DNA of 22,605 nt from Candidatus Thorarchaeota archaeon (GTDB taxonomy: Archaea; Asgardarchaeota; Thorarchaeia; Thorarchaeales; Thorarchaeaceae): assembly GCA_016840855.1 (NCBI GenBank), contig JAEORO010000021.1, positions 1 through 22,605 on the forward strand, written 5' to 3'. The translations under genes were made by a program, and so were the position numbers. Below, piece after piece: positions 289 through 22,200 of the stretch; positions within the stretch are counted from its first letter, which is position 1, and each line of letters starts with the position of its first letter. The notes below the pieces were generated by a model. The model was not told where the DNA came from. It did not search any database and worked only from the letters and a program-made list of their open reading frames with translations.

Positions 289-2115
289 TTGGGAGAAAAG
301 GCGAAGGTTAAGGAAACAGTTAGACTCTACTCAAAAGTTTGGCGGCTTCCTTCATATCGTCAAATAGTTGTGAGAATGATTCTTCTCGTCTTTATTGGCT
401 CATTAATTCTATCTGCCACCAAGGGATTACTTCTTGATGTATTCATGGGTTATTCAATCATCCTTGGAGTACCAGTTTTCATTGGTTCAGGACTTCTCTA
501 TGCAATAGCTACAGATGAGGGGTCTCCCCTAAATGGAAGAAGAACTGCTGGATTGGTCCATTTTGGATTGATCTTTTGGATAACTTTGAGTGCAATTGGA
601 GGTATTCTTGATGCAATTGCATCTTCAAACATACTTGAAATCAGATTCTCGATATTGGGAGTATCTATTGCATACTTAGCATTCGCTTTTCTAGTAAATG
701 GGTTAAGTGACCATCATCCTGTAAGGAACACGATTGCGGCTCTAATGCCGCCAATCCTTTGGATAATTCTGGAATTACTGCTTGCTCCGATGAATACTGC
801 ACTCCCAATTTTGCCAGGATTATGGTATATTCCAATTGTCAGTTCCTTGATCATTGCTTCACTTGTGGTTCATTATATCTACAGGGCGGTGAGCGTGCCA
901 TTCGAAAGAGACCTCGGTATCAACGGCCCTCGACTCCTTCGAGCATTTGGTCACGATTACTTAGCGGATAATCCAAAACCATTTGAAGAAATACTTACCA
1001 AAATCGCAACAATTCAGGATATTCCAGTAGAAATCATCATATTTCGGGATGAAGAAGGTCCAGTCGCATGTGGAGTAATTCAATATGTACACCCAGGGCC
1101 TTTCAGAGATATTGGCAGTAGCGACCTTCCATCCGTAATCATAGAACACGTTCAGAAAAAACATGGAATACCTGCATTTGTAATGCATGGAAGTTGTACA
1201 CATCAGCAGAATCTGACAACAAAAGACGATTATCCTATTGTACTCGAAGAAATTGACAGACTGATCGAGAGTACTGAAGTCCACGAACTTATTTCAGGAC
1301 CCCACTGGTATGATGGCGGAAAATTCAAGGTATGGAGTCTCTTTGTAGGTAACGATGTTCTCACAATTAGCACAAGCTCACCTGAGTTCACTGATGACAT
1401 CTCGTTAGATGTGGGATATGATGTAGCAAATATGATCAGAGAAAGACTACCTCAAGTTGAGGGTGTGGCAGTCGTAGACGCTCATAATTGCATTAATGGT
1501 TCGGCTATTTCTGTTAATCAAGGAGATCCAGAAGCAGGTGAATATGTAGGTGCAGTTTCAGGAGCTGTGTTCTCGAGTATAAATAACGAAAAAACCAAAG
1601 TGCAACTTGGAATGCATCAGATTATTCCTGATGATATAACTCAGTCTGAGGGAATGGGGCCTGGTGGCATAATAGCTGTCATCCTGAATGTGGGAGAACG
1701 TGAAGTGGCTTTAATTTCAGTAGATGGTAACAATATGGAGCTAGGATTTAGAGAGCAAATTCAGAGTTTACTAAAAGCACAAGGATTTGATGATTCGGAA
1801 ATTATTACGACAGATACTCATGTAGTAAATGCAATTTCACTCTCAAGCAGAGGTTATCCTCCAATTGGCCGCCACAAACCGAATGAAACTATAGAACATA
1901 TATTAGCTGCTTCGATTAAAGCTCGAGAAAGGGTCCAACCAGTAAAAGTTGGTCTTGGGTTTGGAAAAGCAAAGAAACTTCGGACATTCGGGGAGAAGGG
2001 ATTTGATATTCTCACTCAAGATGTTGCTGAAGCAGCGGGTATTGCCAAGCGAGTGGGGATAAGGGCAGGAGTAGGATCAATTCTGCTCTATATACTCCTT
2101 GCATTTTTAATATAG
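289..2115 (+). CDS. DUF2070-family membrane protein (predicted membrane-associated hydrolase, neutral ceramidase-like superfamily)
   Basis: About 6 N-terminal TM helices, then a soluble domain with HPGPF, HGSCTH, DAHN, DGNN and TTDTH motifs, and a C-terminal TM helix. Start moved from ATG193 (inside an operator box) to in-frame TTG289, preceded by GAGTGA. Confidence 0.8.
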   Translation: MGEKAKVKETVRLYSKVWRLPSYRQIVVRMILLVFIGSLILSATKGLLLDVFMGYSIILGVPVFIGSGLLYAIATDEGSPLNGRRTAGLVHFGLIFWITLSAIGGILDAIASSNILEIRFSILGVSIAYLAFAFLVNGLSDHHPVRNTIAALMPPILWIILELLLAPMNTALPILPGLWYIPIVSSLIIASLVVHYIYRAVSVPFERDLGINGPRLLRAFGHDYLADNPKPFEEILTKIATIQDIPVEIIIFRDEEGPVACGVIQYVHPGPFRDIGSSDLPSVIIEHVQKKHGIPAFVMHGSCTHQQNLTTKDDYPIVLEEIDRLIESTEVHELISGPHWYDGGKFKVWSLFVGNDVLTISTSSPEFTDDISLDVGYDVANMIRERLPQVEGVAVVDAHNCINGSAISVNQGDPEAGEYVGAVSGAVFSSINNEKTKVQLGMHQIIPDDITQSEGMGPGGIIAVILNVGEREVALISVDGNNMELGFREQIQSLLKAQGFDDSEIITTDTHVVNAISLSSRGYPPIGRHKPNETIEHILAASIKARERVQPVKVGLGFGKAKKLRTFGEKGFDILTQDVAEAAGIAKRVGIRAGVGSILLYILLAFLI

Positions 2116-2192
2116 GTAGCATGTTCCAGTCGTTTCGATAGAGGTATATGCATAAGTTCTATTCCTGAAAATCGAGTCGATAGGTGACAATA

Positions 2193-2759
2193 ATGACAAA
2201 GAGGGTTCTTGTTTGTCTAACTGGTGCTAGTGGGGCCATCTATGGAGTTAGATTGATTAGAGCACTGAAGTCAAACGACCATGAAGTTCACTTAATCGTT
2301 AGTAAGTGGGGGGAAGAAACCCTCAAGTATGAAACAGGAATTGATGTGCAGAATCTCAAAAAAGAAACAGACTTCAACTATGATGAACATGATCTCTCAG
2401 CAGGTCCTGCAAGTGGTACGTTTCCAATCGATTCCATGGTTGTCATTCCCTGCTCAATGAAGACACTTGCTGGAATTGCTCATGGATACGCTGATAACCT
2501 CATAGCCCGTGCTGCCGATTGCGCTCTTAAGGAGAGAAGGACACTTATTCTAGTTCCAAGAGAGTCGCCACTAAATCTTATTCAAATTAGAAATATGGCA
2601 ACAGTAACTGAAGCAGGAGGAATAGTGATTCCAGCAAGTCCTGCATTCTGGGCAAAACCAAAGACAATTGATGAGCTGGTTGACTCAGTGGTAGAGCGAG
2701 TCTTGTCTCACTTGGGGATTGGGGATGAAAAGCGTGCTACATGGACCGGGGAGTCCTAG
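2193..2759 (+). CDS. ubiX: Flavin prenyltransferase UbiX
   Basis: Motifs TGASGAIYG, ASGT, PCSMKTLAGIAHG, RAADCALKERR, PRESP and PAFW. ATG2193 follows GGTGA (2183-2187); the track's GTG2184 lies inside that SD. Confidence 0.95.
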   Translation: MTKRVLVCLTGASGAIYGVRLIRALKSNDHEVHLIVSKWGEETLKYETGIDVQNLKKETDFNYDEHDLSAGPASGTFPIDSMVVIPCSMKTLAGIAHGYADNLIARAADCALKERRTLILVPRESPLNLIQIRNMATVTEAGGIVIPASPAFWAKPKTIDELVDSVVERVLSHLGIGDEKRATWTGES

Positions 2760-2761
2760 CA

Positions 2762-4624
2762 TCAACCCCAATGCAAAAGAGTGCCACAGTGCTCACAGAC
2801 AACCGTTTCTCCAGGAAGAGCACGTTTTGGTAATGCCGCACCACATTGGACACACTCGATTTTCCTTGGCGCAGTGTCACCAGTCTTAGCTTGGAGGCGG
2901 AGAAGGACTTCTCGTAAATTATCACGCATCTCTGAAAGAAGCATGTTCATTTTATTCTCATCATCGCTTGTAACTGAGATCCTCATTGTCAAATTCTCTT
3001 TTGAAACAGAGCCAATCACTATGTATTGTGTGCCAGATAGAGCTTTCCCATAGTACCACGATTCCTCGCCATTCTTAGTTCCACTCTTTTCTCCGACAAA
3101 TTTCACGCTTTGTTGCTCAATGACATCATTGACAATGTCTATCATTTCTTGTAAGTCTGCATCTGGTTCAATCTGATATTCTGCAGCTCTCTCGGTTTGG
3201 AGACTGGTTTCAAGGAGTTTCTCCAAGTCGTTCATTGTCATTGTTGAAAGATACGCATCGCGAGCAATAGCTGCATGTGAGGTAGGAATTTCAACTTGGC
3301 TATCTCCATGTTGTTCACAGCTGAGAAATGCTTCAGATTTATCCCCTTTATCATCAATATGCGACAAAGTAAGTTGATTGTGACACTTGTGGCATTCATA
3401 TAACTGACAGTAGAATCTTTCGACAACAGGTTCGCTTGCTCCTATATGCAGATGTCTTTCAAATCCATGACCATTCCGACATTCCATCTTTAAAGTAATG
3501 ATATTGTTACGAACCTTGGCATCACGGATTGTCATTGGAGATTTACATTTCTCACATACTAGGCTCTCTTCAGTCGAAGGCATTCTATCAATGTGCTTGT
3601 TTCTTTCCTCAACATGTTTGAAAATGCCTACACTCACGTTTTTCTTAAAATCACCATGAACTGGACATATGAGTTTTAATTCTACTTCGTTGCCACTGAC
3701 CTTGGTTTCTATAATGTCAACAACAAGATTGCAGTCATTGCACTTCAGGACACCACTGACAATAGAATCAATTGCTTCCTCGTCTAAGTCTGCGGGTTGA
3801 GATAGTTCAATACTATGACCATTCATGCAACTGCATTTCAGTTTGTATTTCATTTTGTCAAGTTCAATGGACTTTATCGATAATGAGTTCCCACAATCAC
3901 GACAGTTCAGCATCGACCTTACGATGCTTCCTTCAGACATTGCCTCCACAATTGATTCAATCATCCATGCATATTCTGCAGGAAGTTCCTTCTTCATTTT
4001 ACCATGTGCCGGGCATACAAGCTCAACCTGAGCCTTGTTTCCTTTGGGTTGTGTTCCTAATACTTGACATGGTAATCCACCTTGATCACAATGGATGAGC
4101 CTCTTCACAACTGTTTTGAGTACTGACTCGTCTGCAATCTTTGGAATAAATCTCATCTCTTTGTGACCATTAGGACATCGTAATTTAACTTCAAGAATCC
4201 CTTTCTTTTCAGAAATCTCAGAAACGGCAAACACTTCACTGCACTTAGGACAACTCAAAGAGTCAAGGATGGACTTTGAACAGTTCATTCCACCTTGCAT
4301 GCCTGCTACAGCGGTGTGATAGAAGGCAGGAATCTCCCTTCTTTGAAGACCATGTATTGGGCAGACAAAGATGTACTCTGCTTTATGTTTACCAACATCT
4401 GTGTTCATTAATGTCATTGTGGAGCCACATTCTATGCACGTAAAGATACCTTCGAAGACTTCATTTGCCATACTATCAGCTTGGTATCTCGAAATGTCCC
4501 GTTTCCCCTTGTGCCCATTCAGACATTGGCAATAGACTCGAAGCGTTTGACCTTTAAGTTCACCAGCTTGAACATAGAAAGGTTCTTTGCATTTCTTACA
4601 AGTGAAAATTGCTCTCTCCTCCAC
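2762..4624 (-). CDS. Hypothetical protein: 8 tandem CxxC-x21-Cx2/3H metal-ribbon repeats + appendage platform-like domain + C-terminal CxxC..CxxC ribbon (620 aa)
   Basis: Repeats alternate CxNGH and CPxHG-type endings (CLNGH, CPIHG, CPNGH, CPAHG, CMNGH, CPVHG, CRNGH, CEQHG); ends with CVQC...CEHC. Collinear paralogue of 4700-6973 (shared IDRMPS, CEKC, ECRNGH). Confidence 0.85.
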   Translation of the reverse strand: MEERAIFTCKKCKEPFYVQAGELKGQTLRVYCQCLNGHKGKRDISRYQADSMANEVFEGIFTCIECGSTMTLMNTDVGKHKAEYIFVCPIHGLQRREIPAFYHTAVAGMQGGMNCSKSILDSLSCPKCSEVFAVSEISEKKGILEVKLRCPNGHKEMRFIPKIADESVLKTVVKRLIHCDQGGLPCQVLGTQPKGNKAQVELVCPAHGKMKKELPAEYAWMIESIVEAMSEGSIVRSMLNCRDCGNSLSIKSIELDKMKYKLKCSCMNGHSIELSQPADLDEEAIDSIVSGVLKCNDCNLVVDIIETKVSGNEVELKLICPVHGDFKKNVSVGIFKHVEERNKHIDRMPSTEESLVCEKCKSPMTIRDAKVRNNIITLKMECRNGHGFERHLHIGASEPVVERFYCQLYECHKCHNQLTLSHIDDKGDKSEAFLSCEQHGDSQVEIPTSHAAIARDAYLSTMTMNDLEKLLETSLQTERAAEYQIEPDADLQEMIDIVNDVIEQQSVKFVGEKSGTKNGEESWYYGKALSGTQYIVIGSVSKENLTMRISVTSDDENKMNMLLSEMRDNLREVLLRLQAKTGDTAPRKIECVQCGAALPKRALPGETVVCEHCGTLLHWG

Positions 4625-4699
4625 TTGGTGTGCGGCAGCGAACCAAAACCAGTTGTGTTAAGCTCCCTAAAAGATATTACGTAAACACAAATAATGCCT

Positions 4700-6973
4700 T
4701 TACTGGAGATAAAGAGCAATAGTTAGAGTAGCTGTGCAGTACTTACAGCGAACAGGAAGTCGTCGTCCCATCTCTTCCACCTGTTCAATTTCTAAAGGTG
4801 CACCGCAACGAAGACAGACCCAGGAGTCCATTGTGTCAGCTAATTCATCAATAGTTGTGGGCAACATGGCTATATCTTCTCCTAGTGCCTCCACTCTCAC
4901 ACTTGAATGTCGTCCGTTCTCTGGACCACTAATGAGAATGATAACTGCAACTTTCTTCTGTGTGTACTTGCCTTCAGCATATCCCCTAATAGTGCCTATG
5001 AATTCTCCACCCACTATCCGTTCTTCACAGTCCACGATATGAAAATTCTTTGCCGGTAGTATCTTTTCAGCTTTGGTAAAAAGAACTTGAGCATTCCATT
5101 CCAATGTTTGTTCTTGCTGTGTCCTCTCGAGTCCAGTTAGTAGTAGCTCGAATGTTTCCGTAGTTTTCTTTAAGGGCTGAAGCAAGTCGCAAACAGAACG
5201 AATCAAATAAGGTTCAACACTCACTGTGTGGAGTTGATCTAAAAAGTCAATATAGGAAACCGTGGCTACAACTTTGCCTTGTACACAATCCTTTGTTGGA
5301 TAGAATGTGAATTGAGGGCTTCTAAAGCCTCCAACTTCAATTCTTGATATTGTCTTGACACTCTCACCAGTCAGTTCCATACAATCTTGAGGATATGCTA
5401 CAATTGAAACAGTGACATTAGTAATTACATATCCACTATCATTTTTCACCTTCACTTTAAAGTCGAACTTACCACCGACAATTTCGCAACCTCTGAGTAC
5501 TGCAACACCGGTTTCGCATGTAGAAGTTGCAGTTGAAACTGCTAGGATGTCCGGACCTTCCGGTTCAGGAACTTCTACAGGTGGCCGTTTTTTGTCTTCT
5601 TGCATCTCATTGTACGCAGATTGCATTGCCTCTGCGTGGTCTGGAGGGATATCAAGCACTGTTTTACCATGAAGTGAGCACAGTAAAACAACCCTATCTT
5701 CTCGAGTGTGAGGTTCTATGTAGACTAGTTCGAGATCTTCATAACATTCTGGACATTGATAGAGTCTTTTGTAGAGACCAGTGAGCGTTTTGTGATCCAG
5801 ACCGGGAATAAACAACCTACTACTACGGTGTCCATTCCGACATTCAACATCTAGCTCAATCAGTCCCCGTCTTTCTTCGACATCTCGCACATTTACGGGC
5901 ATGCTACATTTTTCGCAGCTTAGACTACGAATTATCGAAGGCATGCGATCAATACGGGACTGATTTTCCTCAACCAACTTAAAGACGTCAGGTGGTGCGT
6001 CACGTTTCATCACACCGTGAACTGGACAGACGATTCTAAAGCTTATCTTCTTCTTTGTTCTCTTTTTATCAAGAATATGCGTGAGGTTTCCACATTCCTC
6101 GCAGGTTAGAAGAGCAATAGCGATTCGTGTTATGACGGGTTCAGTCCAAATGATGGGTAAAACTCTATCGGAGGTGCTCTTTGTACCTGGACAAATACAT
6201 TTCAGCTTGAAACCCTGCTTTCCTTCTTCAATGCTCCTAATAGCAAGAGCATGACTGCAGTCATGAGCGGCAAGTGAAGACTTGACAACAGCGTCCTCAG
6301 GAATCTCAGATACAGCCTCTTGGAGTAAATCAAGATGTGTAGAAAGAATGTCCTTCTTTGATGCACCGTGAATAGGACATGATGTTGTTAACCGAGTAGT
6401 GTTTCCGCGTCGCTCCACATCAGTTATATGACCTGGCAAGCCGCATTTATCACAATGAACAACTCTCTGTAGAATATTCTTTAGTAATGGGATTTCAAGA
6501 CTGCTGGGGAGATACCTCGTTGTTTTGTGACCATTGGCACATCTGACTTCTAATTCGAGAACTCCTTGTCGGAGGTCAACCTCATTTACAGCATACACAA
6601 GACCACATTGGGAGCATCTAAATGAATCAATAATAGAACGAGGACTATCGACATCAGCACCCACAAGTTCAACCATTGCTTGAAAAGAACGAGGAAACTC
6701 ACGTTTCTGCGGCCCATGTATTGGGCAGAGGAAAACACTCTCGATACTGTTTCCTTGACCACGTTCTTCAATATGAGTCATATTTGATCCGCATTCAGTG
6801 CAAGTGTATAATTTCTTGAACACCTCGAATCCCATGTCTTTAGCTTGATGTTCAGATAATCGACGAACACTCTTGTGGCCTCGAAGACATTGTACATGCA
6901 TTGTTAGAATCTTCTCATTCATCTCAGCGCTTCGAATGTAAAGGGGTTCGCCACATGTCTTGCAGGAAAACAC
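4700..6973 (-). CDS. Hypothetical protein: 8 tandem metal-ribbon repeats + Pro/Glu linker + adaptin/coatomer appendage (beta-sandwich + platform)-like module + C-terminal Zn ribbon (757 aa)
   Basis: Same eight-repeat array; linker RPPVEVPEPEGP; beta-rich FKVKVKNDSGYVITNVTV...ATVSYID; junction VCDLLQPLKKTTETFELL; ends with CLRC...CKYC. GTG start after a GGTG SD. The CDS is secure, the ear-domain call is less so. Confidence 0.85.
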   Translation of the reverse strand: MFSCKTCGEPLYIRSAEMNEKILTMHVQCLRGHKSVRRLSEHQAKDMGFEVFKKLYTCTECGSNMTHIEERGQGNSIESVFLCPIHGPQKREFPRSFQAMVELVGADVDSPRSIIDSFRCSQCGLVYAVNEVDLRQGVLELEVRCANGHKTTRYLPSSLEIPLLKNILQRVVHCDKCGLPGHITDVERRGNTTRLTTSCPIHGASKKDILSTHLDLLQEAVSEIPEDAVVKSSLAAHDCSHALAIRSIEEGKQGFKLKCICPGTKSTSDRVLPIIWTEPVITRIAIALLTCEECGNLTHILDKKRTKKKISFRIVCPVHGVMKRDAPPDVFKLVEENQSRIDRMPSIIRSLSCEKCSMPVNVRDVEERRGLIELDVECRNGHRSSRLFIPGLDHKTLTGLYKRLYQCPECYEDLELVYIEPHTREDRVVLLCSLHGKTVLDIPPDHAEAMQSAYNEMQEDKKRPPVEVPEPEGPDILAVSTATSTCETGVAVLRGCEIVGGKFDFKVKVKNDSGYVITNVTVSIVAYPQDCMELTGESVKTISRIEVGGFRSPQFTFYPTKDCVQGKVVATVSYIDFLDQLHTVSVEPYLIRSVCDLLQPLKKTTETFELLLTGLERTQQEQTLEWNAQVLFTKAEKILPAKNFHIVDCEERIVGGEFIGTIRGYAEGKYTQKKVAVIILISGPENGRHSSVRVEALGEDIAMLPTTIDELADTMDSWVCLRCGAPLEIEQVEEMGRRLPVRCKYCTATLTIALYLQ

Positions 6974-7081: not shown

Positions 7082-7561
7082 CTAATCTTCGTCCGACTCT
7101 GAGTCTTCGTTTTCATCCTCGTCTTCTGAAACCTCTTTTACAGTAGGTTTTGGTGTTTGTTTCTTTTTCTTTGATTCAATGAAACCTTCTAAGTCCTTTA
7201 CAATAGGGACATCAGCTCTTTGAAGAGCTAATGAAGCACCATAGAATATAATCAAGATTCCACCAAAAACAATCAACGCAGGTCCAATAACCCAACCTAC
7301 AAGTGGTACATAATTGACATAGTAGCCTAGCACATAGATAAGTCCTCCAATCAATAAACCAGGAAAAGCGACATTTACAGTTTTAGTCATCGCTGATTCG
7401 ACTGTCAGAATGCAAGTTAATCCGAATCCAACAACTAAGAAAAATGGGTATATAAGTGGTACAAAGAAACCCAAATACCAAATTACTGCTCCAATTAAAA
7501 TCATCAAGATATTTTGTGATGATGTCACTTGTTCAAATACTTCTAGTGGTTTGTCACTCAT
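7082..7561 (-). CDS. Hypothetical membrane protein, about 4 TM helices, with a basic then acidic C-terminal tail
   Basis: Two hydrophobic hairpins and tail KKKKQTPKPTVKEVSEDEDENEDSESDED. ATG7561 follows GGTGAG; the track's GTG7570 lies inside that SD. Confidence 0.8.
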   Translation of the reverse strand: MSDKPLEVFEQVTSSQNILMILIGAVIWYLGFFVPLIYPFFLVVGFGLTCILTVESAMTKTVNVAFPGLLIGGLIYVLGYYVNYVPLVGWVIGPALIVFGGILIIFYGASLALQRADVPIVKDLEGFIESKKKKQTPKPTVKEVSEDEDENEDSESDED

Positions 7562-7624
7562 TGTTCTCACCGATTAAAAGGACATAGAGAACGTGTGATA
7601 TTATATATTGTGGAATAGAACACA

Positions 7625-8899: not shown

Positions 8900-9012
8900 A
8901 GATTGCTCAACCGTCTTTTTGGTCACTTGAAGGATATAAGAAAACCCTGAAATACTTGCCTCTCGTGCTCATAGGAGAACCTTCTTGAGGGGATTTGTTG
9001 CACCACGATTGC

Positions 9013-10863
9013 ATGAGAAGACAGTGGTTTGTGCTTTTCTTCATCCTATGGTTTTGTACCAGCTCGGTTTCAGTCGGAGGTATAGAACCTATCAATTCTA
9101 CGTTGGAAACATCGATACAAGCTCAATCTTCATCTGGGATACAAAGAGTTTATGGCACAGACCTCTCAGAGGAAATCTATTCCAGTGTAAGAATTTCTGA
9201 TTATCGGACTTTCGTAAGGGAGATATCTGAAAATGGCTCCAGATACATAATGGATGCTTCCGAAGCAAGGTTGACTAATAATAGGAATGCAAGAGAGTAT
9301 ATTAAACAAAAGCTTACAGAACTCTCAAAAAGCAGAATTGAAGTTGAAGAAATTGGTAGTTATATGAATGTAGTTGGGAAGCTGCCAGGTTATCTTCCTG
9401 GCAATAATCCAGCACTTGCTATTTCAGCCCACTATGACTCGCCTGAATCTTCACCAGGGGCAAACTGTGATGGTAGTGGTATCGCAGCGATGCTAGAGCT
9501 TGCAAGAGTAATGTCCCAATATGAATGGCCACTTGACATTTACTTCTTAGCTTTCAATGGTCTATTCGGCTTTCGTTTTATGCAAGGAAGTCCCCAAGTT
9601 GCCATAGAGTTTCAAGACAGAGGAGTAGAATTCTTGATGGTCTACAACGTAGACACTATTCTTGTTCAAGACAATGAACTTCCTACTGATGAGCGTTTGC
9701 AGATGGGATACGGTACAATAGGACAATCAGATTATCATAATGGACAATATTGGGCAGAACTCGCTCGCATGATGAGTAACAATATTGGGCAAGATAGAAT
9801 AGTTCCAGTTTCATCTCTATACTTTGACGCTTGGTATAGTTCAGACCACTATGCATTCTTTAACAGGGGCTTCAATGCGGTTTGTGCGTTTGAGTCAGGA
9901 CGTGCAGTTGATCCCTCATTTCACAGAGCAAATGATACTTGGGATAATTACTATTTCGATTACAATTTGGGATATGAAACCACAGCAGCGATTGGTGCAT
10001 GTATGGCGCATATCATGGGGCGTACATATGGTGAACAAACAAAACTAAGTTATGATTTCACTTTGGGACTCCGTACCTCTAAGAAGTTCTATATTCCTGT
10101 CACTACTCCCACAACAATGAATTTTACAATCAGGTGGTTTGGAGGTGCTTCATCGTTCTATCTATATAACCCTACAGGCGGACTTATCGCATCAGGAATT
10201 TTCAATCATTCCTCAGCATGGAAACCAAGCAATATTTTCAACCCGACTGTATCAACAAAGGGACTATACACACTGATAGTGGAAAAGGGTGATGAATCAC
10301 CCATCGGTTATGAACTGCGAATCTCCTATGAAACTGATATTGATGGAAATGGCATTGCTGATAGTCAGGAATATTGGATCGACCAAGCCCTATTCTTGTC
10401 AGATCAAGATAACGATGGTCTGAGTGATGCAGAAGAGATATTTTATGGAACTGATATGCTGAGTGCTGACTCCGATGGAGACACCATGCCTGATAAATTC
10501 GAGATTACTGTAGGTCTCAATCCCAATGACCCAGCAGATGGAAACGAGGATGCAGATGGAGATCATTTGACTAATGCCCAAGAGTATTCGAGAGGGCTTG
10601 ATCTGTTTTCTATTGATTCGGACTCAGACATGATGGATGACCTATGGGAGCTGGAGAATGGATTAGACCCCCTTTTTGATGACTCAATGCTTGATCAAGA
10701 TGGAGATGGAAAGACAAATCTGGAAGAGTATCTTAACGGAACTAACCCCCAGGTCCCGGAATCGATGGAGGTACCAATTGTATATATCGCCACACCAATA
10801 TTGTTCATTGCTGCAATCAGTGTATTTGTTTATATTCGTACACAAAAAGATCCCTGGACATAA
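9013..10863 (+). CDS. Secreted, membrane-anchored M28-family peptidase homologue, probably inactive; PPC-like beta domain and DxDxDG repeats
   Basis: Signal peptide MRRQWFVLFFILWF; SAHYDS, NVD, SDH and FH are kept, but GANCDG and FNGLFG replace GANDDG and NAEE; acidic DxDxDG repeats; C-terminal TM helix. In-frame ATG9013 preferred to TTG8995. Confidence 0.85.
   Translation: MRRQWFVLFFILWFCTSSVSVGGIEPINSTLETSIQAQSSSGIQRVYGTDLSEEIYSSVRISDYRTFVREISENGSRYIMDASEARLTNNRNAREYIKQKLTELSKSRIEVEEIGSYMNVVGKLPGYLPGNNPALAISAHYDSPESSPGANCDGSGIAAMLELARVMSQYEWPLDIYFLAFNGLFGFRFMQGSPQVAIEFQDRGVEFLMVYNVDTILVQDNELPTDERLQMGYGTIGQSDYHNGQYWAELARMMSNNIGQDRIVPVSSLYFDAWYSSDHYAFFNRGFNAVCAFESGRAVDPSFHRANDTWDNYYFDYNLGYETTAAIGACMAHIMGRTYGEQTKLSYDFTLGLRTSKKFYIPVTTPTTMNFTIRWFGGASSFYLYNPTGGLIASGIFNHSSAWKPSNIFNPTVSTKGLYTLIVEKGDESPIGYELRISYETDIDGNGIADSQEYWIDQALFLSDQDNDGLSDAEEIFYGTDMLSADSDGDTMPDKFEITVGLNPNDPADGNEDADGDHLTNAQEYSRGLDLFSIDSDSDMMDDLWELENGLDPLFDDSMLDQDGDGKTNLEEYLNGTNPQVPESMEVPIVYIATPILFIAAISVFVYIRTQKDPWT
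10336..10770 (+). repeat. Coding DxDxDG (thrombospondin type 3-like, putative Ca-binding) repeats
   Basis: DIDGNG, DQDNDG, DSDGDT, DADGDH, DSDSDM and DQDGDG interleaved with GL(N/D)P and GT(N/D) units. Confidence 0.75.
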
Positions 10864-10875
10864 AGAGGACATCAC

Positions 10876-12693
10876 ATGAAACATCAACTGCTATTCCTCA
10901 TCATCTGCGCGGCTATACTTGTAAGTCCAGTTAATAATGAGATTCGAGCAGTGGATGACACCTCATCTGGATATTTACCAGCGGCTATTGAATTCGAGAG
11001 AGTCTATGGTATTGATTACTCTCACCAGATATTTGATACTGTTTCCCTTGACTCATTCCGCAATTTCATCATTAAGCTTACTGAAAATGGATCTAGACCA
11101 ATAGGGGCAATAACCAATTTAGGCGAGAATAACGTTGCTGCGAGAAACTGGATTGCCAATGAGCTACGAGCAGTATCTAAGGGCAGGATTCAAGTAGAAA
11201 TATTGGGACACTACAATTCGGTCGTAGGTAAACTTCCAGGTTATCTTCCAGTGGATGCACCAGCCCTTATGGTGGGAGGTCATTATGATTCAGTAGCAGA
11301 TTCGCCTGGAGCGAATGATGACGGAACAGGAATTGCCGCGGCTTTAGAGCTCGCAAGAGTTCTTTCTCGGTACAACTGGCCATTAGACATATACTTTGGA
11401 GCTTGGAATGCTGAGGAAAACGGTCTATTAGGGAGTACAGAGGTATCTCAGATTATGCGTGACAGAAATGTCAAACTCTTAGCATACTATAATATTGATA
11501 TGCTGCTCGTGCCAGGGCCATATGCTCCACGCGGGGGTGAAGTATTAATGGCATATCCAGAAGGAGCATATCATCAAGGGAACTACTGGGCTGATTTGAC
11601 AAGAGTTATGAGCCAAAATTATGGCCAGCATATGATTCAGCCTATATCTTCTGAAGATTTCTCAGGGTGGGAACGTTCAGACCATTGGCCCTTTATTGTA
11701 AAGGGATATACAGCGCTTTTCGCACATGAAAGGGGATTTGCATATGATGTGGCATATCACACAGCACAAGATGTATGGAATAACCCGCTCTACAATTATG
11801 AGGTGGCAACTGAGGTAGTTAGGGCAATAGGGAGCTCAATGGCATTTACGATGGCAAGAGCCTACGAAAAACCTACAGTTCAGAATGTGTCCTTTACATT
11901 ACCTAAAGATGACGTGAAGAACTATACATTTGCTATCAGCACGCCAACCACAGTCAATGTTATAGGGCGTTGGTTTGGAGGTGGAACATCAATATCTCTC
12001 TACAATCCTAATGACCAGCTACTCGCTCAAATGGTAGACACTAATGCTTCAGCGTGGGAATATACTCAGATATTTAATCAGAGTGTCACTTCGAAAGGCA
12101 TCTACAGACTGCAAATAACTAACGAGGGAAAAAAGACTGTAGGACACGAGATAAGCTTATCCTATGAAACGGACATTGATGGTAATGGTATTCAAGACAG
12201 TGCAGAGTTTTGGTTTGATCAAGAGTACTTTTCATTAGATACGGATTCTGATTCACTAAGTGATGGCTTCGAAATGATTATTGGCACACTCCGTGATTCT
12301 GCTGACTCTGACATCGATAATCTTCCTGACGCATGGGAAATCGAACATGGACTTAATCCACTTAATCCAAATGACGCAACAGAAGACAATGATTCTGATG
12401 GCGTAATAAACGTGGATGAGTACCTGTATAACTGCGATCCAAATAATCCGGACTCAGATTCAGACAATATGCCAGATTTGTGGGAAATTGATAATGACTT
12501 AAATCCAACAATGGATGATTCTCTTGAGGATCCCGATCATGATGATTTCACCAATATCCAAGAGTATATTGATGGAACAGATCCGCATTATGCAGAATTT
12601 CGACCAAGATATCTTGTTGTCCCTACGATTGTTATTGGAGCAATAGCAGCTATAGTTATGGTTACATATTGGAAGATTCGACCAAGGACTTAG
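10876..12693 (+). CDS. Secreted, membrane-anchored M28-family aminopeptidase with intact metal-binding motifs; PPC-like domain and DxDxDG repeats
   Basis: Signal peptide; GGHYDS, GANDDGTG, NAEENGLLGS, NIDM, SDH and YHT; C-terminal TM helix followed by KIRPRT. GAGG SD; 12 bp after the upstream paralogue. Confidence 0.9.
   Translation: MKHQLLFLIICAAILVSPVNNEIRAVDDTSSGYLPAAIEFERVYGIDYSHQIFDTVSLDSFRNFIIKLTENGSRPIGAITNLGENNVAARNWIANELRAVSKGRIQVEILGHYNSVVGKLPGYLPVDAPALMVGGHYDSVADSPGANDDGTGIAAALELARVLSRYNWPLDIYFGAWNAEENGLLGSTEVSQIMRDRNVKLLAYYNIDMLLVPGPYAPRGGEVLMAYPEGAYHQGNYWADLTRVMSQNYGQHMIQPISSEDFSGWERSDHWPFIVKGYTALFAHERGFAYDVAYHTAQDVWNNPLYNYEVATEVVRAIGSSMAFTMARAYEKPTVQNVSFTLPKDDVKNYTFAISTPTTVNVIGRWFGGGTSISLYNPNDQLLAQMVDTNASAWEYTQIFNQSVTSKGIYRLQITNEGKKTVGHEISLSYETDIDGNGIQDSAEFWFDQEYFSLDTDSDSLSDGFEMIIGTLRDSADSDIDNLPDAWEIEHGLNPLNPNDATEDNDSDGVINVDEYLYNCDPNNPDSDSDNMPDLWEIDNDLNPTMDDSLEDPDHDDFTNIQEYIDGTDPHYAEFRPRYLVVPTIVIGAIAAIVMVTYWKIRPRT
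12172..12590 (+). repeat. Coding DxDxDx (thrombospondin type 3-like) repeats
   Basis: DIDGNG, DTDSDS, DSDIDN, DNDSDG, DSDSDN and DPDHDD, in the same register as in the upstream paralogue. Confidence 0.75.
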
Positions 12694-12772: not shown

Positions 12773-13651
12773 TTGTATATTCCGAGAAAGAGGTCATTAC
12801 AGCTAATCGAGATACAGGAGGCCGTCCTTCCTGAAGATGAATGGCTAATAGGAATCTCTGATCTCGGATATTTCGAGGGTATAGGTTATTCCATGCCCAT
12901 TGCTAATGAAGATACAAATGAAAATGCACTGGATAATCTTTATGCTTTCATCCCGGGATTGTTTTACTGCTCTTCGCAGCAAACATCTGTTGATGCTGTT
13001 TTAATCGAAGTGACTCACAAGCGCTTATCAGGGGTGATGCTACCAAGCTTCAGACCTGAAGATGTCAGAACTTTTGATGTCGGTGGTGGAATTACTCTTA
13101 ATGAAATGGGAGAAATAAAGCCATTTGAGATAACGACGGAAACTCTTGGTAGTTTCGGAATAGAATCATTCATGAAAGACTCTGGAATAAGTCATGAATC
13201 ACTTGATTACAGACAAGAGATTCAAATTGCATCTCAACTTGCTCAGAGGATACCTCTTATTGACTTGAAAAAAGCATACATTTCAAGCTCGTTTTTGCAG
13301 ACCAGGCTTACAAAATTACTCGATGATATTGAATTCTATGGACTTAAACCTCGAATGAGAATTTATGTGAGAAATAAGAATCATCCTTATGGAACTGTAG
13401 TAGATGTCAAATATGGAGGGCCAAGTAAAGAAGATGTGTTTGATACCAGAGTAAATCTAAAAATTCTTGATGACATCGAAATGGAAAAAGAACTAACTAA
13501 TCTATTATTCCCAAAAATGATTGACTCAGGTGTTGAAATTAACATAGAGAAAGCGATTCGTGATATGCATCAATACATTGGGCAAGCCCTGGGGGGTAGT
13601 GCTACTCATCAGGAAGTCTTGAGAAAACTGTTTGAGGAGGGCACACGATGA
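12773..13651 (+). CDS. Hypothetical cytoplasmic protein (292 aa)
   Basis: Long ORF; TTG start preceded by GGTGAG (12761-12766); stop overlaps the next start (ATGA). No family recognised. Confidence 0.8.
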   Translation: MYIPRKRSLQLIEIQEAVLPEDEWLIGISDLGYFEGIGYSMPIANEDTNENALDNLYAFIPGLFYCSSQQTSVDAVLIEVTHKRLSGVMLPSFRPEDVRTFDVGGGITLNEMGEIKPFEITTETLGSFGIESFMKDSGISHESLDYRQEIQIASQLAQRIPLIDLKKAYISSSFLQTRLTKLLDDIEFYGLKPRMRIYVRNKNHPYGTVVDVKYGGPSKEDVFDTRVNLKILDDIEMEKELTNLLFPKMIDSGVEINIEKAIRDMHQYIGQALGGSATHQEVLRKLFEEGTR

Positions 13652-15174
13652 GCTTGGATTTATTGGATGTAACTAAATCAGTTGTTGATAACTTGCATCA
13701 GACATGGCTCTTCAGAGCAATAGAGGAATTGTGTAGAAAAGATGCTCTGGAGTTGCGAGAAGAACTTGACTTAGCAAGTTTCTCAATATCAACTTCAAAC
13801 TCAATTGAAAGGTATAACATGGTCAAGAAACATTTGCTCTCAAAAAGATTTCAAGATGACGCGACTCTCGAATTCCTAATGGATGCGCCTCGTTGGGCAG
13901 GTTTCGCTTTAAATGAAGACGAATTTCAGTCAAGTCAGCAAGTCATTGGGGCTGCAAGAAATGAGGCTATTGCCTTACTTTGGCTAATGGCAATTCCTAA
14001 GCTCATCATAAGTCCAATCATATCACCAGAAGAATATCCGATTGAAGGCATTAGGCAATTTGTCAGTAATCTCATGACATCAGATGAGTCCCGAGCTTTA
14101 CTTGTGAATGACATGTCTAAAGCAATGGAGTCTAGAGGGATACATGACATTGTCTTTGAACCAAATCCTATTGGGAAAGGGTATAGTATCGATGATACAT
14201 TACGACTGCAAAGGATACAATCACTACTTGCGATGATTATGATGCATTCAACAAAATATTCGTTCGATATTGATAGAATATTCACCCTTAATGAAAGAGG
14301 GATTATAGAAGAAACGACAGCGTATATCATTTCAATGCATGCCAAGTCGATGTTGAAGAACCAGATTACCGGAGCTGGTGCACAACGACCTTTCGATTGG
14401 CCATTAATCGGAAATCCCAAGACATGTAGTAATTTGTTTACGACATTGGATGTTTTACAACAAAGTGCCCTAAATATGACGACATGTTCAAAGTATACTT
14501 CTGAATCTGCTCAGGGACGAACTCCATGGGGAAAACGAGAATTTACTTCATTCTTAATAAATGAGATAACAGAACATTATTCTGAAATACATAGGGTGCG
14601 CCATGGCAAGAGCAAAAATATCGAACTTGACTTATTTATAAAATTATTAACATTAGAGAATAATGAAATAACAGAACGACTCGTTGAAACAGACGATCTC
14701 GGAGGCATGTTATTTACTGAATTAAATAAATACAAGCAAAAGGCAAAGAATGGAGAGCAACCTCAAATCACTCCAGAGCGTCGCTTTAGGGTGATCTTAC
14801 TAAACTTAAAGCAACGAGTGTCAGCGGATGTACTCGATGTAATCTCATCTGAAGAAATCATTGATCAAATCATCGAAGTGTTTGATGCGATAGTCGATGT
14901 AGTTGAGAGCCACAAGAAATCTTTTGGGGAGGAGTCGGAGAGATTTACCCAGGCATTATGTTTTGAAACTGCATATCGTATTCTGCAGCTTCTCAATGTT
15001 GGAGGTGCGATTATGGACCTTCCATGGGTATCAAGATTCATTGCTGAAGAGTCTGCACGATCATATATCTCAACAGGAGAGCTTAGTAACCTAGATGATG
15101 AACATCGTATCAGGAGAATTGTTTCAGCATATGCTGGTGGCCTGACGTACTTGGTTCTTCAATGCTCAAATTGA
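13648..15174 (+). CDS. Hypothetical, mostly alpha-helical protein (508 aa)
   Basis: Long ORF with GAGGAGG SD and ATGA overlap with the upstream gene; amphipathic helical pattern; no recognised motif. Confidence 0.8.
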   Translation: MSLDLLDVTKSVVDNLHQTWLFRAIEELCRKDALELREELDLASFSISTSNSIERYNMVKKHLLSKRFQDDATLEFLMDAPRWAGFALNEDEFQSSQQVIGAARNEAIALLWLMAIPKLIISPIISPEEYPIEGIRQFVSNLMTSDESRALLVNDMSKAMESRGIHDIVFEPNPIGKGYSIDDTLRLQRIQSLLAMIMMHSTKYSFDIDRIFTLNERGIIEETTAYIISMHAKSMLKNQITGAGAQRPFDWPLIGNPKTCSNLFTTLDVLQQSALNMTTCSKYTSESAQGRTPWGKREFTSFLINEITEHYSEIHRVRHGKSKNIELDLFIKLLTLENNEITERLVETDDLGGMLFTELNKYKQKAKNGEQPQITPERRFRVILLNLKQRVSADVLDVISSEEIIDQIIEVFDAIVDVVESHKKSFGEESERFTQALCFETAYRILQLLNVGGAIMDLPWVSRFIAEESARSYISTGELSNLDDEHRIRRIVSAYAGGLTYLVLQCSN

Positions 15175-19277: not shown

Positions 19278-22200
19278 ATGAGAAAGCACATAGTTGTACT
19301 AATACTTGTGATTTTGGTACTTTCAGCTGTGCAAGATGTAGATAATCCAAAAAGATCACTTAATCAGTTGAATGAGCAAAATATCTCACATAGTGTTCTA
19401 GGTAGTACAGCATCAGCCTCAGGAAGAGGTAATAGCCATGTTGCCACCATGTTTTTTGATCGAACAATATCAGAACAAGAAATAGAGATTTTCAACACTT
19501 ATAGGAACACAGTCACCCATAGTGTAGATCTAGACCTTTCACCATACCTGATATCAGGTTGGAGGTTATCCAATGTACAAATAATAACTTCAGGCATTAG
19601 TGCTGCGTTGGAAAGAGAAGTTGTTGCGGATACATTTGAAAATTTGGACTTTAGTATTGCCAAAATCAGTGGTACATTCTATCCCCAAATCGCCCAAGGT
19701 TTCTATAATTTTCCACACGATGGAGTTTTAGTTAATTACTCGATTTATTATAGTACTGCATTATATGATCCCGATCTTCGAGGTAACGCATCATTTGTCG
19801 TTAGAAGAGGTAATGCAATCGAAACGGCATCAGATATAACAACACATGTTAATATGACTGCTTCAGATGCTGTGCCATCATGGGCAGTATTGGGGGGCGA
19901 GAATGCATTATTATATGCAAACACGCTCCATTGGGCAGTGATTGATGGTTCGTTGCTTCAAGAATTTGCTAGTTATTATCCATACATCTATTGGATGTCT
20001 GAGGATGGAGCTGGAATATATCCATCAAAACGAAAAGGTACTACTCTCTGGAATACATATAATTTGGAGGCCTTAATGAACTATACTTACATTCCATGGA
20101 ATCAAACTGCAGGTGCACCATTGACTTATTCATCACCTCAACAAGTTGATCTTAAATGTAATGCGTCAACTATCACATCGTTGAGCTTCGATTTCTTTTC
20201 ATCCACAAAGAATATCACAAGCATCTCATTTGACACCAATCAATCCGTTTATTTCAACTATAATATGACTCTCTCGTATGTAAGGGAAACCACAGCTTTG
20301 GCTTCATGGGAGGTCGAATCCTCAGGAAATCAAGTTGATTGGAATGTAACATTTAACGCATCTTATCCAAGCGTATCAGGACAGGTTTCAAGATATCTTA
20401 ACTGCTCAAAGGCAACTAGTTGGACAATCACTGGCCTCTATGAGAGTGCAGCTCCTTCAACTAATCACAGTGACTATTCAATTCAGGGTACAATAGTACG
20501 ATGCGCAAGTATGACAAATGGTACATGGCGATTCGAAGCTACATCCCACAATCATCTTTCAACAGTTAACACGTATAATTCATCAGACGATGCTGAACTC
20601 ATTCGATTCGCCTCGATTCTTGTCGATATTGATGTTAACTTGACAATATTGGAGGATGACTCAGATCCAGTTAAGACAGGGTTGGCAAATCTTACTATCG
20701 TTAAAAGTGATTCAGTGGTATGGGCTCCAACCAACAAGAGTGTAATTGATGGAAAAGTGAATTATTTATGGAACATTGACGCGACAACCTCAGAAAATGG
20801 TGCGTTTATTCTAGAAGTTTCTTGGTCAAATGGCACAGATGCAGGCTATTTGAGTAAAGAAATTATTGTTTTCTTCCCCACATTATTGACAACTTCCACA
20901 CCAAGTATTGATGCCTTTACAGAGAGCATTTTTGACTTAATTGTATACTTTGAGGACACATTTACACCGCAAGGGCTTGATGGAGCCAATGCTATTGTTG
21001 CCTATTCATTTGATGGGGGAACGAATACGAGTATGGTTGACCACAATAATGGGACTTGGACTGCAACAATCTCCACTGCTGGCAAGACTAATGGAACGTA
21101 TTCAGTCCAAGTCTATGCACAGGGCTACGCATTGGAAAATCATAGCATTACGATAGACGTGATTCTAATTCATGATACGCAGCCATTGGTTATAGAATGG
21201 TCAGATGGTTCGGATATTAGCTATGTCCAGACAACAACACTCTATGTCGACTATTTGGTGGCTGGTGGTTCACCAATACCGAAAGCATTAGTTAATGTAT
21301 CAATAGATGATCAGTCTTGGCTGCTTCATTGGAACAGCATAAGTGAAAGATACTGGATTTGCTTCAATGGTACAGATACCACACCAGGTTTTGGTAATCA
21401 TTCTCTCACCATTGAAGCTTGGAAATATGGGTACAAATATCAAATAGACAACGAATACAACTTGACCATAAGTAGAGAACAAACATCTCTTGATATATTA
21501 TGGGACACAAGTAACATTATCACATATGTTGGAAGTACCACACTCATAGCTAACTATACAATGTCAAATGGATCCGCAGTTGTTGGAGCTGAAGTAAATG
21601 TCACAATAGGTACAGGCATCTGGAATATGACTTGGAATGATTTGACAAAAGTATATGAATTAGTGATTCTTGGTAATGATACGAAACTTGGTCTTGATGG
21701 ATTCTCTGTTTTTGTTTTTGCAGGGAAGATAGGATATGTAAATGCCACTAAAGCCGAAACTCTGACAATAAATCCCGAACCCACATCCTTAATGATAAGC
21801 TGGTCTGATGGGAAAAATATAACATATATCGAAACAACGACTCTCTTTGTTACGTATAGAATGAGTGATACAACGCCCATTATTAATGCAATTCTTGTTG
21901 TAACAATTATGGGTGAAACATATGATATGTTCCAGTATAACGAAACCTCATACCGATTGACATTCAACGGAACAGATATTCCACAAGGTTTTGCTACATT
22001 CAATCTGGAAATTGCAGCTCACAAGTATGGTTTTGAAAACAGCTCAAACACCAACCACTGGATTACATTGAGAGAAGAGCCTACATCGATTGAAATCTCA
22101 TGGAGCAATGGTGATAATATCACCTTTGTGCAGTCAACAATTCTTTCAATCAATTTCACTATGAGCAATGGCTATCCAGTCCTAGGAGCAAATGTTACTG

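Follow-up and report, generated by a model that had tools for sequence, protein, structure and literature searches.

The contig analysed here, 22,605 nucleotides of Thorarchaeota DNA (the window), carries two neighboring genes whose products begin with tandem cysteine- and histidine-containing units, which raises the question of what these proteins are and what they might do.

An eight-unit Cys3His array in two neighboring genes

Two collinear open reading frames, P1 and P2, were found on the minus strand at exactly the coordinates given in the original prediction. The genes, their arrays and the two units that depart from the repeat pattern are as follows:

4700..6973, minus strand: P2 gene, 757 aa, with a zinc-ribbon array, a hinge, a predicted ear-like domain and a C4 ribbon (open reading frame and translation)
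2762..4624, minus strand: P1 gene, 620 aa, with a zinc-ribbon array, a predicted platform-only ear remnant and a C4 ribbon (open reading frame and translation)
5585..6973, minus strand: P2 array, residues 1-463, four AB modules with eight units (motif positions and four module profile matches)
3224..4615, minus strand: P1 array, residues 4-467, four AB modules with eight units (motif positions and four module profile matches)
3914..4099, minus strand: P1 unit 4 (residues 176-237), whose first knuckle is a variant, with C-x6-C replacing CxxC in the window genome
6113..6277, minus strand: P2 unit 5, residues 233-287, degenerate A unit, CxxC and His absent

The first cysteines of the units lie at residues 9, 63, 125, 179, 241, 295, 357, and 411 of P1 and at residues 4, 58, 120, 174, (236), 291, 353, and 407 of P2, so that each protein starts, as had been predicted, with eight units of 54 or 62 residues. 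The periods alternate (54/62 aa), which bears out the proposed two-unit repeat and gives a 116-aa AB module present four times. A units follow CxxC-x21-C-x3-H and B units CxxC-x21-C-x2-H, with one departing unit per protein; in the window the odd units end in CLNGH, CPNGH, CMNGH, CRNGH, CLRGH, or CANGH and the even units in CPIHG, CPAHG, CPVHG, CEQHG, or CSLHG. The constant spacer of 21 residues between the second and third cysteine, also part of the original prediction, holds in all canonical units of the window, in 268 of 274 units of the P1 relatives and in all 253 units of the P2 relatives. Strict A/B alternation is correct as the family order (ABABABAB in 30 of 35 P1 relatives, ABAB-BAB in 32 of 37 P2 relatives), but P1 unit 4 of the window and P2 unit 5 depart from the unit motif. 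The family consensus of P1 unit 4 is CDxCGLPC, with the second cysteine in at least 90% of 35 sequences, and P2 unit 5 is degenerate both here and in the family consensus. Up to nine metal sites per chain had been expected; each protein has seven canonical putative sites plus the C4 ribbon, to which P1 adds a variant one. In the P1 and P2 families, whose overall identities are 44-84%, conservation of the ligand columns is complete or at least 90%, and, judged from these alignments, the Cys3His repeat pattern is not due to chance.

The AlphaFold2 model of P1 is confident (pLDDT 89.0, pTM 0.70) and agrees with an ordered scaffold; an elongated, metal-stabilized scaffold had been proposed for the array. 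Every unit of the modeled array combines a knuckle with three strands and with one or two helices: the strands at the CxxC knuckle are short, two long ones reach the third cysteine, and the third strand follows a turn that bears the His. The modeled P1 units show the two knuckles, β-hairpin and third antiparallel strand of a generic zinc ribbon. As had been anticipated, no known family in Pfam, NCBIfam, or the PDB sequence families covers the array. Trm112p (PF03966) matched P1 with 22.9 bits against a cut-off of 22, at residues 238-301, which straddle two units, and over profile positions 7-34 of 40, and the NCBIfam archaeal Trm112 model gave 16 bits against a cut-off of 77; at the level of sequence this match is a generic ribbon resemblance. 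The other weak Pfam matches were to Zn_ribbon_recom (22.5 bits, cut-off 25.3) and ZPR1 ribbons. P2 fell short of the DUF723 (PF05265) cut-off (20.3 versus 20.9 bits), with only profile positions 17-45 of 60 aligned.

Predicted ear-like domains at the C-termini

The C-termini, which the original prediction had not described as ear-like, are the most informative part of the two proteins. From the models, the P2 C-terminus is predicted to resemble an adaptin/COPI appendage, with hinge, β-sandwich and platform, and that of P1 to retain the platform only:

5507..5611, minus strand: P2 hinge, acidic and Pro-rich, about residues 455-489 (pLDDT below 50 at model residues 1-33, which are residues 455-487; pI 4.17 for residues 456-490)
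5201..5506, minus strand: predicted P2 β-sandwich subdomain, residues 490-591 (strands at model residues 36-137)
4832..5170, minus strand: predicted P2 platform (α/β) subdomain, residues 602-714
4703..4825, minus strand: P2 terminal C4 ribbon, residues 717-757, with C720, C723, C743, and C746 (all four invariant, n = 38)
2888..3214, minus strand: P1 platform-like domain, residues 471-579
2765..2863, minus strand: P1 terminal C4 ribbon, residues 588-620, with C591, C594, C610, and C613 (all four invariant, n = 35)

The P2 C-terminal model is of moderate confidence (pLDDT 63.6, pTM 0.41) and places a sandwich before a platform, the subdomain order of an adaptin/COPI ear. Among the Foldseek matches listed, ranks 1-14 are adaptin or COPI appendages, with BBSome chains next; the best match is 9pue_A (E 2.6e-7), and the alignments extend over 227-271 columns and cover both subdomains. 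For the sandwich, the Foldseek and VIA matches include adaptin, COPI, and BBSome appendage sandwiches. Two-domain superpositions gave rmsd values of 9-14 Å and TM scores of 0.24-0.41, and the single subdomains match common folds at similar Z values (helix-grip folds of Bet v 1 and Flpp3, 9.8; Ig-like TRAP, 8.9). A sequence link to adaptins was absent: for the Pfam ear families (alpha-adaptin C2, B2-adapt-app_C, and COP-gamma platform), hmmscan up to E 1 returned only PF09066 in P1 (E 0.17, 12.4 bits, cut-off 22.6) and nothing in P2, and profile searches of the PDB returned no adaptin. A hinge is predicted in P2, but the region ahead of it is the zinc-ribbon array and not the HEAT/α-solenoid trunk of the adaptors. 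The P1 C4 ribbon was modeled with reduced confidence (pLDDT 55-72).

The single-pass membrane proteins of a large Thorarchaeota family likewise end, after the span, in a P2-type ear-like domain with a ribbon tail. In the eight paralogues inspected, four from the genome of the window and four from two other genomes, the membrane span always precedes the ear, the C4 ribbon stands at the end in seven, and SBP_bac_5 or NosD/β-helix domains lie ahead of the span in two. We infer that the ear and ribbon tail of these paralogues are cytoplasmic. P1 has no hydrophobic segment and P2 a single borderline one, and both are predicted to be soluble proteins of a Thorarchaeota-type Asgard archaeon.

Distribution, duplication and the question of a heterodimer

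Searches returned 123 homologs of P2, those named by organism being nearly all from Thorarchaeota, and 113 of P1. P2 occupies a conserved syntenic slot and is present in 16 of 16 genera of the family, although the conserved gene order around it may be plain synteny of related genomes. P1 is a later tandem copy of P2. Modules at the same position in P1 and P2 share 33-39% identity and other module pairs 16-29%, and in profile comparison the two arrays are collinear over 461 alignment columns, whereas the C-termini do not align; this position-wise orthology together with the collinear arrays indicates that the four-module array is older than the gene duplication.

An obligate P1-P2 heterodimer along the collinear arrays, elaborated from the pairing suggested in the original prediction, could be the functional unit. 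The two genes share a contig in 22 of 28 genomes of the window's genus, directly adjacent in 18 and with an insert of ~0.8-1.4 kb in 4, and they are also adjacent in G376, G392, G394, and G396. Their order and strand are constant, P1 always lying downstream of P2, and a pseudo-symmetric pair would fit the position-wise orthology of their modules. Adjacency, however, is what tandem duplication yields by default, and the distribution gave the idea no positive support, since many genera have P2 alone, one has mostly the P1-type gene alone and 1.7 Mb separate the two genes in G320, a single-contig genome. Nine genera (g3-g5, g7-g11, and g14) gave no match to the P1 C-terminus at E 1e-5, and in these the four modules correspond to one array gene per genome; the P1 C-terminal query matched only weakly (E ~1e-6) in g2 and g13 and not at all in g15. 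Conversely, genus g12 has the P1-type gene in 13 of 17 genomes and a P2 ortholog in one of 17 (G376), and in its genome G368 the syntenic slot is filled by the P1-type gene alone. An obligate heterodimer is thus unlikely, P1 having arisen later by tandem duplication.

The module itself is not limited to the P1/P2 pair: a profile search found other Asgard proteins with one to four copies. The fusion partners in other Asgard lineages are PCI or UFL1-like winged helices and double zinc ribbons, with a PCI winged helix in three proteins (P0222, P0273, and P0316) and a UFL1-like domain (PF09743, E 2.1e-17) in an AB-module protein of Ranarchaeia; winged-helix or HhH domains also occur in some relatives that have a single module. 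Of the 150 module-profile matches listed, 104 cover one part of the module only, in 1-11 stretches each; all ten such partial matches that were scanned are DUF723 and nine are also DUF4379.

A proposed role and comparison with known systems

We propose, with confidence about evenly poised, that P1 and P2 are soluble, cytoplasmic, metal-stabilized interaction scaffolds of Thorarchaeota-type Asgard archaea and belong to an Asgard domain-shuffling network, which earlier work by others connects with membrane remodeling. The four tandem 116-aa AB modules (~460 N-terminal residues), with two Cys3His metal-stabilized ribbon units each, would form an ordered rod, and this eight-unit rod would stand where eukaryotic adaptins have their helical trunk. 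Its sites would bind a structural metal, probably Zn, and the rod may serve as a rigid multivalent platform or spacer. The C-terminus would be an adaptin/COPI appendage-like module closed by the C4 ribbon, complete in P2 after the hinge and reduced to the platform in P1, and the ear presumably binds partner proteins or short peptide motifs. Within the ear and ribbon family, P2 would be the best conserved member, soluble and present in a single copy, with P1 as its tandem duplicate. The likely context is membrane-protein handling in a ubiquitin/ESCRT/adaptin-like Asgard domain network. The window neighbors of the pair are UbiX, DUF2070, an HD-domain protein, M28 peptidases, and POR; within the window no ESCRT, ubiquitin-like, GTPase, or coat genes stand beside the pair, nor are small or medium adaptor subunits or clathrin-like genes found near it.

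A tandem ribbon array could instead read or clamp DNA or RNA, which would make P1 and P2 regulators or RNA chaperones. Zinc ribbons of TFIIB, TFIIS, RPC12, and Elf1 act on DNA or RNA, and type IA topoisomerases carry C-terminal zinc-ribbon arrays, the tandem ribbons of topoisomerase I. The automatic names of homologs, all from one source, point the same way ("RNA polymerase subunit RPC12/RpoP," "transcription elongation factor Elf1," "ssDNA-binding Zn-ribbon topoisomerase 1"), as do the weak Pfam ribbon matches (Zn_ribbon_recom, Trm112p, and ZPR1) and the winged-helix or HhH domains of some single-module relatives. The nucleic-acid-binding Pfam ribbons all score below cut-off, however, with Trm112p as the nominal exception, and the module is fused to winged helices of the PCI/UFL1 type, which are mainly protein-interaction modules. 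Charge is nearly balanced in the arrays (pI 6.68 and 7.75; K+R close to D+E), and the ear-like C-termini suggest protein binding instead, as the solved structures they match are ears in complex with partner peptides. We consider action on nucleic acids improbable, to the same degree as the obligate heterodimer. Still less probable, and in our view quite unlikely, is an Fe-binding array that stores or relays electrons or senses redox state or iron. A near-identical motif in the tetraether synthase GDGT-MAS holds mononuclear Fe (PMC9433317), and within 10 kb there are genes for a UbiX-type flavoprotein and for subunits of pyruvate:ferredoxin oxidoreductase. The flavoprotein gene, however, is convergent with the pair and not co-oriented, and it encodes a UbiX prenyltransferase; searches of the PDB sequences with three module and family profiles, at E thresholds of up to 1-10, matched neither a solved rubredoxin nor a GDGT-MAS chain. 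One decayed site per protein is kept family-wide, which a structural role tolerates better than a relay, and the fusion partners of the module elsewhere are interaction domains, not redox enzymes.

Generic zinc ribbons (Trm112p PF03966, Zn_ribbon_recom PF13408, ZPR1 PF03367, and Elf1) resemble the modeled P1 units in that the knuckles bracket a β-hairpin that is followed by a third strand, but in P1 and P2 the ligands are Cys3His and not Cys4, the 21-residue spacer is fixed, and A and B units alternate strictly, with type-specific helical linkers and eight copies per chain. The Cys3His site that the original prediction cited from tetraether synthases does exist: the report on GDGT-MAS (MJ0619) describes C9-X2-C12-X20-C33-X2-H36 binding a mononuclear rubredoxin-type Fe (PMC9433317). 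This ligand set, C-X2-C-X20-C-X2-H, is close to the B unit C-x2-C-x21-C-x2-H and one residue shorter; as described there, the site binds Fe and occurs once, in the N-terminal part of a radical SAM enzyme, in contrast to the eight-unit arrays of P1 and P2, in which Pfam and NCBIfam scans found no radical SAM domain. The treble-clef arrays of DUF723 and DUF4379 (PF05265 and PF14311) share tandem small metal sites and a strand followed by CPxHG, but their match is confined to module positions ~64-100, and in their repeats CPxHG precedes CPxC with a different spacing.

The closest published archaeal and Asgard proteins, as far as the accessible portions of the two papers go, are those of Liu et al. 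(10.1101/2020.10.19.343400) and Makarova et al. (10.1101/2024.02.06.579148). In the former, Asgard adaptin/COPI C-terminal domains are fused to Vps28/Vps23 and to E3 UFM1 ligase 1, and these fusions are predicted to serve ubiquitin-dependent membrane remodeling (10.1101/2020.10.19.343400); in the latter, appendage regions (IG plus TBP) recur in archaeal ESCRT loci (10.1101/2024.02.06.579148). The proteins of both papers are like P1 and P2, as modeled, in having an IG-like plus TBP-like appendage in lineage-specific fusions, and they also include transmembrane-linker fusions and one Zn-ribbon protein. The fusions reported are to Vps28-C, Vps23, longin, GOLD, and UFL1, and those portions describe no eight-unit Cys3His array, although the P1/P2 family may be listed elsewhere in these papers under a cluster number. 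We found no published description of a rod of eight metal-binding mini-domains combined with a predicted adaptor-ear tail. P1 and P2 differ from the ears of AP-2 α/β2, AP-4 β, and COPI γ (9pue, 2vj0, 1e42, 3h1z, 1w80, 2mj7, and 1r4x) in having no detectable sequence kinship with them, in a trunk that is a zinc-ribbon array and not a HEAT solenoid, in the extra C4 ribbon after the platform and, for P1, in the missing sandwich. In the model, P2 nevertheless has the same subdomain order as these ears and, like them, would carry its ear at the far end of a long structured region, beyond a disordered hinge.

The ribbon array of P1 and P2

P1 and P2 are neighbouring paralogues encoded by collinear ORFs.

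2762-4624, minus strand: P1, 620 aa
4700-6973, minus strand: P2, 757 aa

The N-terminus of each protein is made up of eight units whose first cysteines are spaced alternately by 54 and 62 residues. Odd (A) units follow CxxC-x21-C-x3-H, mostly with the ending CxNGH, and even (B) units follow CxxC-x21-C-x2-H, mostly with CPxHG. One A and one B unit together give a module of 116 aa that occurs four times in each protein, and both C-termini end in a CxxC...CxxC ribbon. The eight-unit array with A/B alternation and a 21-residue spacer, as put forward in the original prediction, is present in both ORFs and recurs across relatives, the unit order being ABABABAB in 30/35 P1 sequences and ABAB-BAB in 32/37 P2 sequences compared. 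The spacer is 21 residues in 268 of 274 P1-family units and in all 253 P2-family units, and at an overall identity of 44–90% the ligand positions show little or no variation. Eight regular sites per chain, which the prediction also implied, are found for most units but not for P1 unit 4, which reads C-x6-C in the window's genome (P1 family consensus CDxCGLPC), nor for P2 unit 5, where the CxxC and the His are lost throughout the P2 family. Each P1 module is closest to the P2 module at the same position (39, 34, 36, and 33% identity for modules 1–4), other P1/P2 module pairs share 16–29%, and an alignment of the two family profiles is collinear across 461 columns. This position-wise likeness and the collinear profiles argue that the four-module array is older than the gene duplication and was already present before P1 and P2 separated.

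The expectation that no known sequence family accounts for the array held. Pfam and NCBIfam gave only weak, local ribbon matches in P1 and P2, the one nominal Pfam pass being Trm112p (22.9 bits against a cut-off of 22), whose match straddles two units. Searches of PDB sequences with three profiles returned nothing usable (best hits bL33, E 0.21, and ZPR1, E 0.88), and the ESM Atlas returned nothing beyond the query protein's own Thorarchaeota cluster.

The AlphaFold2 model of P1, built from 35 sequences, has a pLDDT of 89.0 and a pTM of 0.70. Every unit in the model consists of a knuckle, a long hairpin leading to the third Cys, a His-bearing turn and a third strand, followed by one helix in A units and two in B units. 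The high pTM suggests that the array would be an ordered rod and not beads on a string. The PDB chains returned by Foldseek for the whole P1 model are all beta-propellers, designed or natural, or other repeat proteins (TM 0.07–0.13, rmsd 19–30 Å); these are read as matches of repeat pattern and not as a shared fold. On the model, the array appears to be a compact repeat scaffold, probably very stable, of a kind that was not found among solved structures. A Foldseek-independent search of 48,161 chains placed appendage platform subdomains in the top four positions for P1 residues 458–578, with generic helix-grip folds reaching a Z of at most 9.1; the rows listed for this search cover only residues 467–583 and not the array, so that the fold of the module is not claimed to be new. 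As modeled, P2 is ear-like in architecture, with a beta-sandwich and platform after a hinge, and P1 is platform-like. Neither protein was placed in the adaptin sequence families by the sequence test, and they are therefore not assigned to them.

Distribution of the AB module and gene context

Homologs of P1 and P2 that carry an organism name are annotated almost entirely as Thorarchaeota; a few bear the labels Sifarchaeia, Promethearchaeota or Odinarchaeota. The module profile matches, in the window's own genome, only the eight P1/P2 modules, and it has a match in 141 of 400 genomes of the phylum (E up to 1e-5). In the window's family 68 of 85 genomes match; most genomes of the window's genus have eight modules, and in most other genera the number is four. 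Weaker matches, one to six in number, come from six further families (f14 19/19, f16 6/6, f17 3/3, f18 2/2, f19 2/2, and f22 39/135), and at the same threshold no match was obtained in the well-sampled families f8 (0/31), f11 (0/22), and f21 (0/14). Against 1.84 billion representative proteins the profile gave 244 matches (E up to 0.001). Among the 150 listed, 46 are module-length and 104 partial, mostly around CPxHG; all 10 partial matches scanned contain DUF723, and nine of them also DUF4379 treble-clef arrays, an architecture different from that of the AB module array. In five of the 20 clusters looked up a member has an organism name: Ranarchaeia, Helarchaeota (three clusters) and Lokiarchaeota, all of them Asgard. 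The profile search envisaged in the original prediction thus did reach other proteins, every named one Asgard, and the module is not confined to the pair.

In Asgard relatives outside the pair the AB module is present in one to three copies, accompanied by PCI-type winged helices, by double zinc ribbons after Pro-rich linkers, or by N-terminal hydrophobic segments in front. In one relative, the Ranarchaeia protein P0364 (923 aa), two and a half modules (residues 12–321) are followed by a winged-helix repeat region of ~600 residues that is UFL1-like (PF09743, E 2.1e-17); P0364 has a weak DDRGK match as well.

Among 12 loci examined, from nine genera, 10 share the gene order DUF2070, UbiX-type flavoprotein, (P1), P2, (162-aa three-span protein), HD-domain protein, M28 peptidase, POR. 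A functional operon with these neighbours was considered and rejected, because these loci all stem from related genomes within a single family and nothing evident connects the neighbours to P1 and P2. The syntenic slot is occupied by a P1-type gene alone in genome G368, and in the closed genome G320 it holds P2, with a P1-type gene 1.7 Mb away. Within the window's genus P1 and P2 share a contig in 22 of 28 genomes, directly adjacent in 18 and separated by an insert of 0.8–1.4 kb in four; the other six are cut by a contig end or lack a match. The extra ~0.8–1.4 kb of DNA (G348, G349, G352, and G342) is probably one small inserted gene. This pattern of adjacency is that expected of a tandem duplication in a syntenic region and is compatible with joint function.

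Other features of the window are as follows.

7082-7570, minus strand: protein of 162 aa, with three hydrophobic spans and a very acidic tail at its C-terminus, detected in 6/12 related loci
8995-10863 and 10876-12693, plus strand: two tandem M28 peptidase paralogues, the first with a bacterial TSP3 repeat
12773-13651 and 13648-15174, plus strand: overlapping gene pair of 292 aa (no family) and 508 aa (weak Dynamin_M, E 3.8e-4, below cut-off)
19278-22604, plus strand, open at the window end: very large ORF of >1109 aa with weak Ig-like matches only (Invasin_D3, Big_13)

The three-span gene has the orientation of the HD-domain gene and of P2, between which it lies; the gaps are 54 and 108 nt. 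In several related genomes the M28 peptidase is single-copy. One or both genes of the overlapping pair occur in four of the 12 related loci, both in three, and the 508-aa product may be a dynamin-like protein.

The ear-plus-ribbon tail and its membrane paralogues

Of the family's 86 genomes, 78 were matched by a query with the P2 C-terminus, the maximum being 16 matches in one genome, and a P2-type ortholog (at least 68% identity) is present in 52 genomes. Eight other copies of the tail were inspected: a row of four on contig C51, which belongs to the window's genome (locus L009 in G000), three from G320 and one from G368.

L009, 2566-3705, 5713-6840, 6861-7937 and 8001-9428, plus strand: four ear-plus-C4-ribbon paralogues of ~360–475 aa, the last three directly tandem
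L024 (G368), 1148-3943, and L025 (G320), 1250-3634, minus strand: longer tail paralogues with SBP_bac_5 (E 4e-67) or NosD/beta-helix, then a single span

In every one of the eight the ear is preceded by at least one hydrophobic span; seven end in the C4 ribbon, and two carry extracellular-type domains ahead of the span, SBP_bac_5 and NosD/beta-helix. The layout of L024 and L025 appears receptor-like, in that a predicted outside binding domain is joined through the span to an ear-like tail. The L009 paralogues have one to four N-terminal hydrophobic spans each, then a linker of 60–100 residues, and near-identical terminal ribbons (WLCPMCGS...CPFC..S.GR). The largest expansion seen, 16 tail matches, is in G322 of the window's family, where the copy at C344:3683-4441 contains in-frame stops (one TGA and two TAG).

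P1 and P2 were rejected as membrane proteins themselves, as P1 has no hydrophobic segment and P2 only a borderline one, within unit 5. Since the paralogues have spans and P2 only this segment, within this family of receptor-like membrane proteins P2 appears on sequence to be the soluble one, its zinc-ribbon rod standing in place of the paralogues' putative outside domain and span.

Proposed role of the pair

We see an even chance that P1 and P2 are soluble, metal-stabilized interaction scaffolds in the Asgard membrane-remodelling domain network. The Cys3His sites would hold a structural metal, more likely Zn, the rod would present a rigid, near-neutral protein-binding surface or act as a spacer, and the ear would bind partners. 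The partners fused to archaeal ears include Vps28/Vps23, UFL1, longin and GOLD, and the same authors link that Asgard domain network to ubiquitin-dependent membrane remodelling (10.1101/2020.10.19.343400; 10.1101/2024.02.06.579148). These ear fusions, together with the PCI/UFL1-like partners of the module, are the reason for placing both the module and the ear in this network.

The pI values of the two arrays are near neutral, at 6.7 and 7.8, and a nucleic-acid-binding array is a reading that we regard as unlikely. An array of redox centers is very improbable in our judgment, one point in its favor being the tetraether synthase domain, where Fe occupies the same ligand set (PMC9433317). The suggestion that P1 and P2 form a heterodimer overlaps with the scaffold reading and is compatible with their adjacency, but genera that carry P1 or P2 alone count against an obligate pair, which we likewise consider doubtful. 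Complex prediction with the arrays only (P2 1–460 and P1 1–470, each with its alignment) gave scores of 0.42, 0.00, and 0.30, a median of 0.30 against a mark of 0.32, a result that speaks neither for pairing nor against it.

The zinc ribbon is a classic fold, and publications already describe ear-like domains from Asgard archaea. The literature searched, apart from asCOG and arCOG supplementary tables that may list the family, yielded no description of the AB module as a family, the strict A/B alternation, the eightfold array, the rod-hinge-ear-ribbon architecture or the link to the membrane paralogues. Our analysis defines a 116-aa module with two predicted metal sites that in Thorarchaeota makes up the trunk of a universally retained soluble protein whose tail is adaptin-ear-like, and the same tail is found at the end of receptor-like membrane proteins that form a large family. 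Concrete expressible targets for asking what archaeal ears bind are the rod, the ear and the paralogue tails.

Going beyond the scaffold reading, P2 could be a primitive cargo adaptor, an idea to which we attach little probability. Its rod or tail would engage the identical tails of the receptor-like membrane paralogues, so that in an Asgard cell these would collect in patches to be sorted or turned over. The AB module would act throughout Asgard as a recognition element of that system, which would explain its fusions to PCI/UFL1-type winged helices. In such an adaptor the layout of trunk, hinge and ear would be that of the eukaryotic large adaptin subunit, whereas the trunk is built from HEAT repeats in adaptin and would be made of metal ribbons in P2.
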